From positions 1 through 11,240 of the IMG/VR virus record IMGVR_UViG_2537561823_000007: a stretch of 11,240 nt of DNA; one strand, given 5' to 3'. This DNA comes from a virus (taxonomy: Duplodnaviria; Heunggongvirae; Uroviricota; Caudoviricetes). The notes beneath the pieces were generated by a model, which searched no databases, was not told the origin of the DNA, and saw only the letters and a list, made by a program, of their open reading frames with translations. This document shows positions 6,598 to 11,240 of this stretch, in pieces. A program made the position numbers and the translations under genes. Position 1 is the stretch's first letter. Every line of letters begins with the position of its first letter.

Positions 6598-7644
6598 GTG
6601 CGGGTATTACTTCGACCTGTTCTGGTGCCGGAACTTGGGGTGGTTATCGTTAAGCCAGGTCGTGAATCCATGCAGGTATTCCATAACGGCAGAGTGCTGG
6701 TTGAACCGGAGCCAAAAAGCATGCGCGGTCTGCCGTCCGGAGTCGTTCCTGCTGTTCGCCAGCCGCTGGCGGAGGATAAATCATTACTGCCATTTTTCAG
6801 CGATGAGCGGGTGATTCGTGCTGCTGGTGGTGCTGGTGCATTGTCTGACTGGCTGTTACGCCACGTTAAATCCTGCCAGTGGCCTCATGGTGACTATCAT
6901 CACAGTGAAACCGTCATACATCGTTATGGTACCGGCGCAATGGTGTTGTGCTGGCACTGCGACAACCAGCTGCGTGACCAGACATCCGAATCACTCGAGC
7001 AACTTGCTCATCAAAACCTGTCAGCATGGATGATTGACGTCATACGCCATGCAATGAATGGCACGCAGGAGCGGGAATTATCGCTGGCTGAATTATCTTG
7101 GTGGGCAACCATAAATAACGTAGCGGACGCACTACCGGAGACGGTATTACGTCGTTCGCTGGGATTGCGCGCGGAAAAAATTCGCTCAGTATACCGCGAG
7201 AGCGACATCGTGCCGGGAGAGCAGACTGCCACCAGCATACTGAAGCAGCGCACAAAAAATCTTGCGCCGCTGCCTCACGCCCACCAGCAAACCCCGCCAC
7301 AGGAAAAGACGGTGGTCAGCATTGCTGTTGATCCGGAGTCTCCGGAATCTTTCATGAAACGACCTAAACGTCGCCGCTGGGTTAACGAGAAATACACACG
7401 CTGGGTGAAGACACAGCCGTGTGCGTGTTGTGGTAAGCCAGCCGACGATCCCCATCACCTGATTGGTCATGGTCAGGGCGGAATGGGGACAAAATCTCAC
7501 GATATTTTTACGCTACCGCTGTGTCGGGAGCATCACAACGAGCTTCATGCGGATCCGCTGGCGTTCGAAGAAAAGCATGGTTCTCAGGTTGATTTAATTT
7601 TTCGTTTTCTTGATCACGCCTTTGCAACTGGCGTGCTTGGGTAA
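6598..7644 (+). CDS. DUF968 / YdfU-like protein with C-terminal HNH-like Cys/His cluster (348 aa)
   Basis: GTG start. C-terminal CACCGKPADDPHHLIGHGQGGMGTKSHDIFTLPLCREHHNELH resembles a zinc-binding HNH-like motif. Lies upstream of rusA as is common in lambdoid nin regions. Confidence 0.75.
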   Translation: MRVLLRPVLVPELGVVIVKPGRESMQVFHNGRVLVEPEPKSMRGLPSGVVPAVRQPLAEDKSLLPFFSDERVIRAAGGAGALSDWLLRHVKSCQWPHGDYHHSETVIHRYGTGAMVLCWHCDNQLRDQTSESLEQLAHQNLSAWMIDVIRHAMNGTQERELSLAELSWWATINNVADALPETVLRRSLGLRAEKIRSVYRESDIVPGEQTATSILKQRTKNLAPLPHAHQQTPPQEKTVVSIAVDPESPESFMKRPKRRRWVNEKYTRWVKTQPCACCGKPADDPHHLIGHGQGGMGTKSHDIFTLPLCREHHNELHADPLAFEEKHGSQVDLIFRFLDHAFATGVLG

Positions 7645-7656
7645 AAGAGGTGACTG

Positions 7657-8016
7657 ATGCTCATAGATTTGGTTTTACCTTACCCGCCGACGGTGAACAC
7701 TTACTGGCGACGCCGTGGCAGCACATATTTTATCTCGGAGGAGGGAAAGCGTTATCGCCGTGATGTGGCGCTTATTGTTCGCCAGCAGCGACTGAAATTA
7801 AAGCTGTCCGGACGGCTGGCGATAAAGGTGATTGCAGAGCCACCGGATAAACGTCGTCGTGACCTGGACAATATCCTGAAAGCACCACTGGATGCACTGA
7901 CACATGCGGGGTTGCTTATCGACGACGAGCAGTTTGATGAAATCAATATTGTGCGCGGTCAGCTCGTTCCTGGTGGGCGACTGGGGATAAAAATCACAGA
8001 ATTGGGGTGCGCATGA
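7657..8016 (+). CDS. rusA: RusA-family Holliday-junction resolvase (119 aa)
   Basis: AAGAGG ribosome-binding site. Sequence PYPPTVNTYWRRRG... and DKRRRDLDNILKAPLDALTHAGLLIDDEQ match the RusA signature (RRRDLDN...K...DAL) as I recall it from DLP12 RusA. Confidence 0.85.
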   Translation: MLIDLVLPYPPTVNTYWRRRGSTYFISEEGKRYRRDVALIVRQQRLKLKLSGRLAIKVIAEPPDKRRRDLDNILKAPLDALTHAGLLIDDEQFDEINIVRGQLVPGGRLGIKITELGCA

Positions 8017-8702
8017 ATAACCAGTATTTACAGTTTGTGCGTGAGCAGCTCATTATCGCCACCGCTGATTTGAGTGGGGCAACAAAAGGTCAGCTTGAAG
8101 CCTGGCAGGAGAATGCCATGTTTGATACAGGGCGTTACAGGCGTAAAAAAATCCGGTACCGAGATGAAGTGACCGGAAAAATGATTACGCGGGATAATCC
8201 ACCAATCCCGGGGAAACAATCGCTGGCGAAGGGGACGTCAATTCCTCTGGTCAGTCCGGTTGAGTTTTCGACATCATCGTGGCGGCGGGCTGTTCTGTCT
8301 CTTGAAGAACATCATAAAGCCTGGTTGTTATGGTGTTACAGCGGGAGTATTTGTTGGGAATATCAGATCGCGATAACACAGTGGGCGTGGAATGAATTTA
8401 ATACTCAATCCGGTACCAGAAAAATTGCAGGGAAAACGCAGGAACGCCTGAAAAAATTAATCTGGCTGGCGGCGCAGGCAGTAAAAGCAGAACTTTTTGG
8501 TGGGGAAGGTTATGAATACCAGGAGCTGGCATTACTGGCGGGAGTGACAACTAAAAACTGGTCCAAAACATTTACTCGTCACTGGGTTGCAATGAAACAC
8601 ATTTTTCACCGACTGGATAGTGAGGCTTTATTGTTTGTAATGAGAACACGTTCAAAACAAAAGGCGGCATTTTCAAAGCAAAGTGTTGCAAAAGTAGATT
8701 GA
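8013..8702 (+). CDS. Q-like late-gene antiterminator (229 aa)
   Basis: ATG at 8013 overlaps the rusA stop (ATGA). MNNQYLQFVREQLIIATADLSGATKGQ... resembles what I recall of Qin QuuQ. Followed by a tR'-like terminator and the late region. Confidence 0.7.
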   Translation: MNNQYLQFVREQLIIATADLSGATKGQLEAWQENAMFDTGRYRRKKIRYRDEVTGKMITRDNPPIPGKQSLAKGTSIPLVSPVEFSTSSWRRAVLSLEEHHKAWLLWCYSGSICWEYQIAITQWAWNEFNTQSGTRKIAGKTQERLKKLIWLAAQAVKAELFGGEGYEYQELALLAGVTTKNWSKTFTRHWVAMKHIFHRLDSEALLFVMRTRSKQKAAFSKQSVAKVD

Positions 8703-8765
8703 AAGGCATATATTTCATGCAAATCTGATATTTTGCCGATTTTGTACGTGATGGCAAAAGCAAAC

Positions 8766-8792
8766 AAAACCCGCCCACAAGCGGGTTTTTTT
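8766..8792 (+). terminator. tR'-like intrinsic terminator downstream of the Q gene
   Basis: ACCCGC-CCACAA-GCGGGT hairpin followed by a run of seven T. Confidence 0.75.
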
Positions 8793-8874
8793 GTGCCACT
8801 TATCTCGGATAGAAATGGTGAATGCGCTGGTGGAGGAAGTAAGGGTAATTTTTAACCAGGTGATTCTTGAATGC

Positions 8875-8903
8875 TTGCAACATTTATTTCGTAACGTTAT
8901 TAT
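8875..8903 (+). promoter_or_regulatory. Near-consensus sigma-70 promoter driving the tRNA cluster
   Basis: -35 TTGCAA at 8875..8880, 17-bp spacer, -10 TATTAT at 8898..8903, about 9 bp upstream of the first tRNA. Confidence 0.65.
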
Positions 8904-8912
8904 CCTGCGCCC

Positions 8913-8988
8913 GGCCCTTTAGCTCAGTGGTGAGAGCGAGCGACTCATAATCGCCAGGTCGCTGGTTCAAATCCAGCAAGGGCCACCA
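8913..8988 (+). tRNA. tRNA with anticodon CAT, Ile2 (lysidine)-type, ileX/ileZ-like
   Basis: Manual cloverleaf: acceptor GGCCCTT/AAGGGCC, D-arm GCTC/GAGC, anticodon loop CTCATAA, T-arm GCTGG-TTCAAAT-CCAGC, discriminator A, encoded CCA. Very close to recalled E. coli ileX. Confidence 0.85.
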
Positions 8989-8989
8989 A

Positions 8990-9066
8990 CCGTCACCAGT
9001 TCATCAGGAAAGAGCGTCAACCCTTTAAGTTGAGTGTGCGAGGTTCGAGTCCCCGGTGGCGGTCCA
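8990..9066 (+). tRNA. Atypical tRNA, anticodon TTT (Lys-like) with C at position 33 and 9-nt D-loop
   Basis: Acceptor CCGTCAC/GTGGCGG (one G-U pair), anticodon stem TCAAC/GTTGA, loop CCTTTAA, T-loop TTCGAGT with one A-C mismatch in the T-stem, encoded CCA. Assignment tentative. Confidence 0.55.
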
Positions 9067-9068
9067 GT

Positions 9069-9144
<76 letters not shown>

Positions 9145-9147
9145 TAT

Positions 9148-9222
<75 letters not shown>

Positions 9223-9496
9223 GCATTTGAAATAAGCCTTATTGTATTGCAGCACTGGCGTATTTTTTATTACGTGGGAGCAGGTTGTTTTAAGAGACAT
9301 TCTGTTCTCTGGCTATAATTTGAGGCCAGGTGTAGCCTCAGTGCTGATTTTTTTACGACAGCAGAATGGTGCATTATCGGTGGAGATTTTGTATTTCCTG
9401 GCAGGGTCGGTGATGCATCATTCCGATGTTGTAAGCATCGCTCAGAATAACGTTGAGATTAATCGCGTACTAAGCAAAACCTGGAAATACATCCTT

Positions 9497-9524
9497 AACC
9501 GCCGCACCAGGCGGTTTTTTTTAT
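9497..9524 (+). terminator. Intrinsic terminator in the late leader
   Basis: ACCGCC-GCACCA-GGCGGT hairpin followed by eight T. Confidence 0.7.
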
Positions 9525-9639
9525 TCATTTTTTTTTCATGGCTCGCTACGGCGGGCCTTTTTCATATCCTCGCCACACCCGGCGCATATCACATCAAATA
9601 ACGCCGCGCAAAAGGCATCTGCGGGTGCCTTTGACGGGG

Positions 9640-9665
9640 TGTTTTTACGGGCCGCTGGTGGCCCT
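9640..9665 (+). terminator. Intrinsic terminator/attenuator just upstream of the lysis genes
   Basis: GGGCC-GCTGGT-GGCCC hairpin followed by a T-run; an AAGGCA/TGCCTT hairpin precedes it at 9612..9633. Confidence 0.6.
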
Positions 9666-9689
9666 TTTTTATTTACAGGAGAAAAACGT

Positions 9690-10079
9690 ATGTCTGAACC
9701 CTTATCCGGTTCCGGCACGGCTGCGGCGCTCGGTGGGGCGACGGTGTACGGGCTGTTTACCGGAACGGATTTCGGGATTGTGTTTGGTGCGTTCGCCGGG
9801 GCGTTATTTGTGGCAACGATGCCGCAGGCGCTTTCAGTCTGGCGTGTGGTGGCGCATTTTTTGGTGTCGTTTATCGTCGGCGTGCTGGGGGCGCGCGTGC
9901 TGTCAGCCTGGATTGCATCAAAAACAGGGTATGACGGTACATCGGCAGATGCGCTGTGTGCGGTGCTGGTATCGGTGGTGTCGGTGAAGATTCTGTCGTT
10001 CATCCACCAGCAGGATATTGCATCGCTGGTGTCCGGTGTGTTCTCCCGTCTGCGGGGTGGAGGCGGTAATGTTAAGTAA
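9690..10079 (+). CDS. Putative holin / lysis membrane protein (129 aa)
   Basis: ATG at 9690 with AGGAG ribosome-binding site 8 nt upstream. Several Gly/Ala-rich hydrophobic segments (GATVYGLFTGTDFGIVFGAFAGALFVA, VVAHFLVSFIVGVLGA). First gene of the lysis cassette. Confidence 0.6.
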   Translation: MSEPLSGSGTAAALGGATVYGLFTGTDFGIVFGAFAGALFVATMPQALSVWRVVAHFLVSFIVGVLGARVLSAWIASKTGYDGTSADALCAVLVSVVSVKILSFIHQQDIASLVSGVFSRLRGGGGNVK

Positions 10080-10344
10080 CCTTCCCGGATTACTGAATGT
10101 GGTGTTAAGCACGGTTATCGTGCTGACGCTCTTTTTTTATCGTCGTGGTGATTCCAGACATAAACCGCTGATGTCGTGGCTGGCCTGGCTGCTGATGCTG
10201 CTGTATGCCTTTGCGCCACTTTGTTATCTGTGTGGTCGCTTTCCACCCGGTAACTGGCTGGTCGTCCTGATTAACCTGGTGTTCTGCGTGCTGGTGATAC
10301 GAGCACGCGGGAACGTATCAAAAATCCTTTCATTACGGAGGTGA
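10069..10344 (+). CDS. Small membrane protein, holin/antiholin-like (91 aa)
   Basis: ATG at 10069 overlaps the previous gene's 3' end by 11 nt. Two to three predicted transmembrane helices (LLNVVLSTVIVLTLFF, LAWLLMLLYAFAPLCYL, WLVVLINLVFCVLVI). Stop lies next to the endolysin ribosome-binding site. Confidence 0.55.
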   Translation: MLSNLPGLLNVVLSTVIVLTLFFYRRGDSRHKPLMSWLAWLLMLLYAFAPLCYLCGRFPPGNWLVVLINLVFCVLVIRARGNVSKILSLRR

Positions 10345-10346
10345 GT

Positions 10347-10724
10347 ATGCCCGGTAAATTCAGATTCAGTCGTCGAAGTGAGAAAAATCTGGAGGGCGTC
10401 AAACCACAGCTGGTTGCTGTTGTTCGCCGTGCGCTGGAGCTGACGGAGGTTGACTTCGGTATTACGGAAGGCCTGCGCAGTAAGTATCGCCAGAAGCAGC
10501 TGGTCGCGGAAGGGAAAAGCCAGACCATGAACAGCCGCCACCTGACCGGTGATGCGGTGGATGTTGTGGCCTACATTGGTAGCCAGGTGTCATGGGACTG
10601 GCCTCTGTACGAGAAAATCGCGCAGGCATTTAAGCAGGCTGCCGCAGAGCTGGGAACTGCCATCGAATGGGGCGGGGACTGGAAAACACTGAAAGACGGG
10701 CCTCACTTTCAGTTGAAGCGCTAA
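10347..10724 (+). CDS. Endolysin, peptidase M15 family (L-alanyl-D-glutamate peptidase-like, 125 aa)
   Basis: GGAGG ribosome-binding site then ATG at 10347. Zinc-ligand pattern SRHLTGDAVD ... DGPHFQ typical of M15/VanY-like phage endolysins. Confidence 0.8.
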   Translation: MPGKFRFSRRSEKNLEGVKPQLVAVVRRALELTEVDFGITEGLRSKYRQKQLVAEGKSQTMNSRHLTGDAVDVVAYIGSQVSWDWPLYEKIAQAFKQAAAELGTAIEWGGDWKTLKDGPHFQLKR

Positions 10725-10738
10725 TAACCAGGTGGTTT

Positions 10739-10921
10739 ATGAGCCGAAAACACTGGACACACAGAATGCCGCGAACGGCGGCGAAATGGGCACTGGTAGC
10801 GATACTGGTGCCTTTTTTCCTGGTGGGATGCGTTAGCCTGGATAAGGTGCGCCAGCTTTTCGATACGGCCTCGCAGGTCTGCGAAATTGTCGAAAGTGCC
10901 AGGCAGTGTATGCAGAACTGA
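10739..10921 (+). CDS. Small lipoprotein (60 aa), possible outer-membrane spanin component or lysis-associated lipoprotein
   Basis: AGGTGG ribosome-binding site then ATG at 10739. Signal peptide with lipobox LVGC (MSRKHWTHRMPRTAAKWALVAILVPFFLVGC) and a 29-residue mature part with two more Cys. Not proline-rich like lambda Rz1. Confidence 0.55.
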   Translation: MSRKHWTHRMPRTAAKWALVAILVPFFLVGCVSLDKVRQLFDTASQVCEIVESARQCMQN

Positions 10922-10954
10922 TCGCCTGTAAGAGCAGAATATTGTTGAATCTAA

Positions 10955-11240
10955 GTAAGCGGCTCGTCAGAACCGTATTGATATTTACTGAGAGCTCAGA
11001 TCAACTTTCCAGGGCAACAGATCGCGTACCCGGTTTGCCGGCCAGTCCTGGATATGTTCAATGACGTAGCGCAGCCACTTTTCTGGCTCCACATTGTTCA
11101 GACGGCATGTGCCGATCAGCGAGTACAACACCGCCGCATGTTCACCACCGCTGTCGGAACCCGCGAACATCCACTTTTTCCGGCCTACGGCCACTCCCCG
11201 TAAGGCGTTCTCTGCGATGTTGTTGTCGATTTCCACCCAG
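10955..11240 (-). mobile_element. End of an IS66-family insertion sequence (continues beyond the window)
   Basis: GTAAGCG-type terminal sequence at 10955 followed by the 3' end of a transposase gene on the minus strand. Confidence 0.75.
10985..11240 (-). CDS. IS66-family transposase, C-terminal portion (5' end beyond the window)
   Basis: Translation ...ENALRGVAVGRKKWMFAGSDSGGEHAAVLYSLIGTCRLNNVEPEKWLRYVIEHIQDWPANRVRDLLPW matches the conserved IS66 transposase C-terminal motif (ENALR...GRKNWLFAGS...LLPW). Confidence 0.85.
   Translation of the reverse strand, partial: WVEIDNNIAENALRGVAVGRKKWMFAGSDSGGEHAAVLYSLIGTCRLNNVEPEKWLRYVIEHIQDWPANRVRDLLPWKVDLSSQ

Follow-up and report, generated by a model that had tools for sequence, protein, structure and literature searches.

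A tRNA-linked, predicted structured RNA in the late leader of a lambdoid Escherichia coli prophage

The interval between the tRNA genes and the holin gene

The stretch of DNA considered here (the "window," 11,240 nucleotides in all, positions 1 to 11,240 of the IMG/VR virus record IMGVR_UViG_2537561823_000007) is part of a lambdoid prophage of enterotoxigenic Escherichia coli (ETEC) and carries a lysis cassette of the phiP27 type; it is 100% identical to a prophage that ETEC strain 504239 shares with five other genomes. The gene order given by RefSeq for an identical genome is DUF968, RusA, antiterminator Q, tRNA-Ile, tRNA-Thr, tRNA-Gly, a hypothetical protein, a putative holin, a second holin, an M15 endolysin and an IS66 element. 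Our subject is the interval 9223-9689, which, because of the positions of Q, the tRNA genes and the holin in the window, we take as the last part of the lambdoid late-operon leader. An earlier, sequence-based reading of this interval (the original prediction) had placed its bounds correctly: the tRNA genes end at 9222 and the ATG of the first holin stands at 9690. The interpretation toward which we lean is that a mobile tRNA cassette has its noncoding tail here, joined to the 5' leader of the lysis genes, and that the tail includes two conserved RNA folds ("domain 1" and "domain 2"). The features of the interval are as follows.

9250-9346, + strand: domain 1, a four-way-junction RNA (minimum free energy (MFE) -43.4 kcal/mol, z -6.5; closing stem CAGCACUG/CAGUGCUG)
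9258-9275, 9276-9309 and 9311-9337, + strand: the three arms of domain 1 in the predicted fold
9341-9601, + strand: hypothetical protein WP_000904532.1 of the Prokaryotic Genome Annotation Pipeline (PGAP), 86 amino acids (aa), in the RefSeq annotation of an identical genome; judged spurious
9347-9354, + strand: A + U7 run, immediately past the closing stem (the U's begin after one base); its last three U's form the base of domain 2
9352-9435, + strand: domain 2, a 33-bp hairpin with a conserved 3'-side bulge CUGGCAG (MFE -35.5 kcal/mol, z -5.1)
9436-9496, + strand: X-type linker of 61 nt, A/U-rich and weakly structured (z -1.9), the variable part of the module
9497-9522, + strand: terminator T1, AACCGCC-GCACCA-GGCGGUU + U8 (-12.4 kcal/mol, z -4.5), which ends the tRNA-linked module
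9540-9562, + strand: terminator T2, GGCUCGC-UACG-GCGGGCC + U5 (-14.5 kcal/mol, z -4.25)
9591-9601, + strand: cargo junction or scar (blastn break points and alignments; TAA at 9599-9601 aligned with the DUF3927 stop codon)
9600-9646, + strand: long hairpin with apical stem GGCAUC-UGCG-GGUGCC, then U5; terminator-like (fold; inverted repeat I1)
9649-9670, + strand: terminator T3, GGGCCGC-UG-GUGGCCC + U6, ending 6 nt before the holin Shine-Dalgarno sequence AGGAG at 9677-9681
9690, + strand: ATG of the first holin (Pfam PF16931, P27-type)

Two conserved folds that travel with the tRNA genes

Folding of 9223-9530 as one piece (-101.5 kcal/mol, z -4.3) shows the hairpin 9352-9435, with the last U's of the T-run used at its base. 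RNAalifold recovered 33 pairs from 45 distinct sequences, and in a model-based alignment of 58 distinct sequences (alignment A4) 98.6% of the cells were paired and 29 of the 33 pairs varied, 6 of them with changes on both sides. These values were reached in none of 500 shuffles, and sliding the 3' partner gave 35-58% pairing. At least 7 positions are G-U pairs in most of the sequences, and a covariance model of the domain scored 57-114 bits on the + strand (at least 87 except in two divergent variants) against 31-50 bits on the - strand; because of these many G-U pairs and the strand-biased scores, the fold can be assigned to RNA of the + strand, the strand of the tRNAs and late genes. With a lower stem of 27 pairs and an upper stem of 6, the duplex has the length of about two helical turns or more that characterizes an RNase III substrate. 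An inverted repeat (11 of 12 positions) connects the apical part of the hairpin, 9390-9401 (UGUAUUUCCUGG), with the tail before T1, 9480-9491 (CCUGGAAAUACA); it might be an alternative pairing and resembles a switch, but the L004 and L014 variant types have not kept it, and it is given here as an observation.

Domain 1 spans most of the ~130 nt that separate tRNA-Gly from the T-run. Without constraints, the same closed three-arm shape was predicted for 47 of 52 distinct relatives; when the closing stem was retained and the interior shuffled, it appeared in 136 of 1560 controls. The second pair of the closing stem is A-U, G-U or G-C among the relatives, which fall into two or more types (type 1, type 2) with unalignable interiors and the architecture kept. 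A T-run of 5-8 is found in every variant, 1-3 nt past the closing stem, and the A + U7 that follows this stem in the window would have the geometry either of a terminator or of an Hfq-binding tail. A tRNA-like reading of domain 1 was tried and rejected: ARAGORN gave no signal there and RF00005 no match, even at E-values up to 10.

It was in domain 1 that the original prediction had seen a "short promoter-hairpin unit," consisting of a possible promoter and of a GAGGC/GCCTC hairpin with a T-run at 9323..9350, that might encode a small RNA or be the remnant of a lost gene. The elements themselves exist. TATAAT is present at 9314-9319, with TTAAGA 18 bp upstream (10 of 12 consensus matches), a GAGGCC/GGCCUC inverted repeat lies at 9322-9339 and the T-run at 9348-9354. 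As a promoter, the site has its hexamer and consensus match in its favor, but promoter-like sites are not clearly enriched (5 vs 1.9 +/- 1.4 in shuffles); as a small terminator, the hairpin fails, because the T-run begins 8 nt past it, which makes the GAGGC pair a poor terminator. The T-run instead adjoins another, conserved stem, that of CAGCACUG (9250-9257) with CAGUGCUG (9339-9346), and the TATAAT is inside arm 3, of which the 5' strand is GGCUAUA (9311-9317). In the relative L006, arm 3 (GGCUAUA/UGUAGCC) is kept by a compensatory G-C to A-U change and the GAGGC/GCCUC pairing is lost; because of this, the "unit" is to be seen neither as a mini-gene nor as a scar. For both domains, we regard the comparative evidence for a conserved (predicted) fold as good.

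The folds are not confined to one kind of prophage. Comparison of the window with ten related loci by blastn gave sharp break points, including 9434/9435 and 9591/9597. The stretch 9064-9434, made up of tRNA-Thr, tRNA-Gly and 212 bp beyond them, is found again at 79-97% identity in prophages with other surroundings, both upstream, where the neighbor is a DUF1133-type Q-like gene, a PF06323-type Q or an adjacent methylase gene, and downstream, where either EssD/RrrD or P27-type lysis genes follow; 9435-9591 is variable, and the sequence from 9597 onward goes with the holin, being ~80% conserved also before EssD-type holins. What the original prediction had named as refuting it, an interval conserved throughout the relatives and missing nothing, receives a divided answer: 9250-9435 and T1 are conserved in all, and 9436-9496 and the 9591/9597 junction are variable. 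A degenerate pattern for the hairpin matched 115 IMG/VR contigs, and a second pattern (for the 3' half) led to further variants. In the contigs with enough upstream sequence for the measurement, the hairpin lies 132-151 nt past the 3' end of tRNA-Gly(UCC) in all but 6, and these 6 have a one-base difference in the tRNA T-arm used as anchor; a place ~140 nt past this tRNA is common to both domains in >120 phage contigs. By blastn, the element is present in 388 of 5426 complete E. coli genomes (~7%), including E. coli W, ATCC 8739, a DH5alpha assembly and many ETEC. With the strict hairpin pattern, a scan of GTDB (one genome per species) matched Escherichia ruysiae only, plus two chance matches, so that at this stringency the range seems to be limited to Escherichia. 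By these sequence comparisons, the predicted structured module travels with the tRNAs among prophages of differing Q genes and holins. In phage SerU-LTIIb (L001), a unit of tRNA-Gly, trailer and holin is duplicated in tandem (1117-2445 and 3026-4148), with a type-1 trailer in one copy and a type-2 trailer in the other.

Tail, terminators, cargo junction and upstream context

The distance from domain 2 to T1 is 52-64 nt in the X type, to which the window belongs, and 142-160 nt in the Y type. The tail of the window, A/U-rich and ending in U8, would have the general build of the 3' part of an Hfq-type small RNA (sRNA). The Y-type tail, with its CGGGAGGCACCCG.CACC core, aligned to the full Rfam model of the sRNA STnc100 (RF02076) at 27.3 bits (E 2.7e-4). 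At its beginning the model takes in the final ~25 nt of domain 2's 3' strand, the rest of domains 1 and 2 lying outside it. Y-type relatives score 23-27 bits against this model, PasD1 37.7 and PasD2 41.4 bits, the gathering score being 47 bits. The X-type tail of the window reached 17.3 bits (E 0.39), below the gathering score, and the STnc100 body is absent: the core hairpin CGGGAGGCACCCG and the closing helix of STnc100, present in Y-type relatives, are missing from 9436-9496. PasD has been related to STnc100 (Zhu, Shabalina and Storz, 2026), and in enteropathogenic E. coli (EPEC) the PasD/STnc100 sRNAs sit between DUF3927 and the holin. The trailer of the window occupies the same niche as these sRNAs, the Q-to-holin leader of lambdoid prophages, but differs in its X-type tail.

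Comparisons with the Pas sRNAs and with IpeX/DLP12 were negative. Searches with the three Pas loci of the EPEC strain E2348/69 by blastn-short found no similarity to the leader, the matches being confined to the end of Q and the pR' region, and PasA, PasC and PasD showed no similarity to the window's leader by blastn; the region of IpeX/DLP12 in K-12 is differently laid out (nmpC) and has no similarity to the leader. In many Y-type relatives, an unannotated, distant STnc100/PasD-like sRNA directly follows the long hairpin (L009, 2697-2894), and in L009 a convergent minus-strand terminator at 2938-2915, after this sRNA, hints at a further transcript of the minus strand.

Beyond the linker, the two intrinsic terminators that the original prediction had listed are present as T1 (9497-9522) and T3 (9649-9670), but its list was incomplete, the sites at 9540-9562 and 9600-9646 having been overlooked. 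T1, T2 and T3 all show the G+C-rich stem-loop and adjoining U-run of an intrinsic terminator; the site at 9323-9350, with its 8-nt gap, does not. T1 was found in ~87% of the examined contigs (its pattern was unmatched in 18) and in each of the ten loci that were aligned; its stem is conserved and its loop variable. The hairpin 9600-9646 is conserved ahead of both P27-type and EssD-type holins. Over 8600-9800, terminator-like sites are enriched (8 vs 1.7 +/- 1.3 in shuffles). The proposal that stacked terminators here fit Q-dependent antitermination has held up, in that predicted intrinsic terminators are indeed stacked in the noncoding leader of the lysis operon, downstream of a Q gene of family PF06323 (E 8.6e-92).

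The cargo gene that seemed to be missing at the usual toxin or moron position can also be accounted for, at another place than expected. Relatives do carry TerB + DUF3927 or stx2e at this site, but the junction is at 9591-9601, not at 9314-9350. In L004 and L010, 679 bp (TerB + DUF3927) stand between window positions 9591 and 9597, and in both the module has an imperfect direct repeat, GCGCA(C/A)ATC..AA, on either side; a single hybrid copy of the repeat is found in the window and in other empty sites. By its sequence, this arrangement fits a deletion between short repeats at 9591/9597, with insertion as the alternative. In phiP27 (L002), stx2e is followed by a 28-codon remnant of DUF3927 (3930-4016, + strand) and then by the same holin-proximal segment; because phiP27 keeps this remnant, DUF3927 plus holin leader looks like the older arrangement. 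(The remnant lies under an annotated minus-strand open reading frame (ORF), L27.) The idea of a deletion scar is reasonable when placed at 9591-9601.

Upstream of the interval, the window contains the following.

8007-8702, + strand: Q antiterminator gene (Pfam PF06323 Phage_antiter_Q, E 8.6e-92; RefSeq "bacteriophage antitermination protein Q")
8686-8714, + strand: pR'-like promoter TTGCAA-17-TATATT, overlapping the end of Q (promoter scan; 9 of 12 consensus matches)
8766-8792, + strand: tR'-like terminator CCCGC/GCGGG + U7, canonical (direct sequence read, fold)
8875-8903, + strand: candidate tRNA-cassette promoter TTGCAA-17-TATTAT, then a GC-rich discriminator, just before tRNA-Ile2 (promoter scan)
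8913-9222, + strand: tRNA-Ile2/Met(CAU), a degenerate tRNA-Lys(UUU)-like sequence, tRNA-Thr(UGU) and tRNA-Gly(UCC) (four by ARAGORN, three of these four by Rfam; Ile, Thr and Gly by PGAP)

As in the Q-dependent late operons of lambdoid phages, a gene of the Q family (PF06323) precedes the leader. The original prediction was right in calling the interval a noncoding leader of the late lysis operon, but the late promoter is outside it, the candidate being the pR'/tR'-like pair at 8686-8792, upstream of the tRNAs. From this pair a short RNA of ~75 nt is predicted, like lambda 6S or StxS. In prophage PP2 of E2348/69, which has the same Q type, homology with the end of Q reaches 8724 and then stops. 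Within the predicted short RNA (8716-8795), at 8718-8791, Rfam gives weak matches to two sRNAs of Salmonella prophages, isrK (22.7 bits, E 0.02) and isrJ, and contig L039 carries a true isrK (75.5 bits) together with a C4 antisense RNA ~2.5 kb upstream of its tRNA cassette. A promoter-like site similar to that of the window's tRNA cassette precedes tRNA-Thr in L009, and mapping in the Stx2 phage Sp5 has placed a transcript start, apparently that of the phage tRNAs, in the corresponding position (PMC7547250).

The tRNA-Lys(UUU) at 8990-9066 is an ARAGORN call that stays below the Rfam gathering score and is absent from the PGAP annotation of an identical genome; its homologue in L005 scores 33 bits only, and we consider it probably a degenerate tRNA. 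Elsewhere in the window, a full-length DicF sRNA is found at 1507-1558 on the - strand (76.7 bits), and the window breaks off, at 10985-11240, within an IS66-family element (ISCro1) that has inserted directly downstream of the lysis genes (RefSeq, identical genome). The RefSeq annotation also places a hokD toxin gene further along the same prophage.

A possible trailer RNA, its rivals and its relatives

We judge it slightly favored, on the whole, that 9223-9689 is the noncoding tail of a mobile tRNA-Thr/tRNA-Gly cassette fused to the lysis-operon 5' leader and that it works in the manner set out below, the steps that involve RNase III and an sRNA being rated lower than the overall picture. In the lysogen, transcripts from the pR'-like promoter would stop at tR', and transcription from the tRNA promoter would cross the tRNAs and end at the U7 run or at T1. 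Processing of the tRNAs would then free a structured trailer RNA, the phage counterpart of an sRNA of the 3' external transcribed spacer (3'ETS)-derived or STnc100/PasD type, and the 33-bp duplex would be a likely RNase III site, parting the tRNA section from the tail. T1, T2, the hairpin with U5 and T3 would keep the constitutive transcription of the tRNAs out of the holin gene; upon induction, Q-modified polymerase coming from pR' would read through all of these terminators. Indirect as the evidence for any function is, the RNA could accordingly act as a tRNA-operon trailer or as an sRNA, with the terminators beyond it insulating the lysis genes.

Several points weigh against this picture. 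Alignment A4 was itself fitted to the covariance model; a plain MAFFT alignment (A2) gave the same picture, but with both-side changes in 2 pairs only. Much of the covariation is one-sided G-U wobble, the pairs of domain 2 that changed on both sides being 6 of 33, and the sequences compared are closely related and come from Escherichia only. It would be unusual for the "hairpin" of an intrinsic terminator to enclose a multi-branch loop of 80 nt. In the natural variant L082 (2 contigs), domain 2 is intact, but arm 3 is without its 3' half and the closing stem without its 3' strand (…GAGGCCAGGTTTTTTTAC…), both having been lost. Finally, the promoter-like site of domain 1 stands at one fixed place in 38 of 39 type-1 variants, mostly as TTGAAA-19-TATGAT, and because of this fixed position a transcript start near 9326, within the interval, keeps some plausibility.

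Such a start would be due to a sigma-70 promoter with its -10 at 9314-9319, making an sRNA of which GAGGCC/GGCCUC would be the 5' stem-loop and which would end either at U7 (~25-30 nt) or at T1 (~200 nt, the size of STnc100/PasD). We consider this doubtful as an explanation of the interval, even with its match to 10 of the 12 consensus positions, its constant place in the type-1 variants and the promoter-like site that EPEC PasD has of its own at the analogous position. The site is missing from at least 7 of 13 type-2 variants that retain both domains, the spacer is 19 bp in most relatives and promoter-like sites show no clear enrichment in the region; moreover, the -10 is part of arm 3, an arm that a compensatory change has kept paired in L006 with the GAGGC hairpin broken, and an RNA beginning at 9326 would omit the 5' strand of the covarying closing stem. 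An internal promoter is possible in the window's type, but would be no defining part of the module. Less probable again is the view that the structured domains are functionless, decaying filler left by recombination at a cargo hot spot, with the terminators alone of importance. The mosaic break points (9434/9435, 9591/9597 and others), the deletion variant L082 and the variable linker are what such filler might produce; the same fold across unalignable interiors, the 98.6% of paired cells with both-side changes and the distance from tRNA-Gly, fixed in >120 contigs, are not. We think it unlikely to a still higher degree that domain 2, or domains 1 and 2 together, might be a cis-acting RNA that alters the polymerase or termination, by analogy with HK022 put or an attenuator switch, and would decide on passage through T1-T3. 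The element does stand between the promoters and the terminator stack, its bulge CUGGCAG is conserved and alternative pairings can be drawn (9390-9401 with 9480-9491, 11 of 12; 9298-9309 with 9357-9368). These pairings, however, are absent from the L004 and L014 variant types, the Q protein and the pR'/tR'-like pair would already explain read-through, and if polymerase from a constitutive tRNA promoter could read through without a factor, lysogens would make the holin.

The least credible of the rivals, and to us a very improbable one, is that the interval encodes the 86-aa protein of PGAP (9341-9601) or another small protein. RefSeq carries the 86-aa annotation in several genomes, but the ORF crosses the T-run, domain 2 and two terminators (T1 and T2), and its hydrophobic stretch is the translated T-run. 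Indels of 1-2 nt in the T-run break the frame in relatives (in L010 a stop follows after 23 codons), variable sites are distributed 23/23/21 over the codon positions, without codon periodicity or a third-position bias, and the elements are 98-105 nt long. A Pfam search of the ORFs in the interval found no family, the 98% identical H39 copy has no annotated coding sequence, and a 15-codon ORF inside the hairpin is shortened to 5 codons in L004. By its sequence the interval is noncoding for protein, and the statement in the original prediction that it holds "no convincing ORF" was right in substance: the 86-aa ORF exists but is not conserved.

The preferred reading, that of a tRNA-cassette tail fused to the lysis leader, can be set beside several known systems. 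The typical lambdoid late leader has the order Q, pR', tR', 6S/StxS, tRNAs, cargo, holin; in the window, a promoter-like site and a strong terminator come after Q, then tRNAs with a promoter-like site of their own, the cargo site and the holin; both StxS and a tRNA promoter have been documented for the phage Sp5 (PMC7547250). Unlike that leader, the window is without cargo genes, its tRNAs are Ile2/(Lys)/Thr/Gly rather than Ile/Arg/Arg, and a conserved structured trailer and four terminator-like sites stand between tRNAs and holin. Stable-RNA operons offer a second comparison. The sRNA 3'ETS-leuZ comes from the end of the glyW-cysT-leuZ tRNA operon. The sRNAs rrA, rrB and rrF are described as lying between the dual terminators of rrn operons (PMC8144298). 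In the window, 9223-9522 is directly 3' of tRNA-Gly, on the same strand and bounded by T1, which is the location expected of such an sRNA; a trailer RNA in this position, directly 3' of the last tRNA and bounded by a terminator, would therefore be a by-product of tRNA transcription and processing. It would differ from 3'ETS-leuZ and the rrn sRNAs in being phage-borne, much longer (about 130-300 nt) and highly structured.

Hairpins processed by RNase III are found in phage polycistronic transcripts, as in the early region of T7, and a 1988 paper by Daniels et al., cited in PMC7547250, is reported to deal with in vivo RNase III sites in the late leader of lambda. Domain 2 resembles these in being a long, near-perfect duplex (27 + 6 bp) with an internal bulge, located between functional units, and can be considered a candidate site. 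ROOL and GOLLD are large noncoding RNAs of prophages, often encoded beside tRNA genes. The trailer would share with them that it is a phage-borne, structured noncoding RNA linked to tRNA genes, but it is much smaller, its host is Escherichia and Rfam matches it to neither of them. That terminators are stacked in Q-controlled leaders and that cargo collects before the holin is already well known. For 9223-9440, Rfam 15 returned no family at either gathering thresholds or permissive E-values, and in the papers searched by sequence string or keyword no description of the two-domain RNA was found; for these reasons we regard the tRNA-Gly-linked, two-domain RNA as new, a variant within the prophage leader/trailer RNAs and the sRNAs of stable-RNA-operon ends.

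Lambdoid late leaders time the expression of toxin and lysis genes and are a source of regulatory sRNAs (StxS, the Pas RNAs, STnc100). If the preferred reading is true, these would be joined by a further class of prophage RNA, a conserved structured module attached to a mobile tRNA cassette, the retention of a seemingly "empty" spacer would be explained and a recurrent, spurious "hypothetical protein" annotation would be corrected. The 9591/9597 junction marks a reusable cargo site in this phage group, used for TerB/DUF3927 and for stx2e. More speculatively, and with no more than a modest chance in our estimation, domains 1 and 2 (9250-9435) might represent a new family of structured RNAs, linked to phage tRNAs and with a task of their own. 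Gated by RNase III, they could make regulatory RNA out of prophage tRNA-operon transcription in lysogens; or they could serve to protect or license the tRNAs of the phage against host nucleases that target tRNAs. Should this be the case, the family would be an enterobacterial counterpart of the tRNA-adjacent phage noncoding RNAs ROOL and GOLLD.

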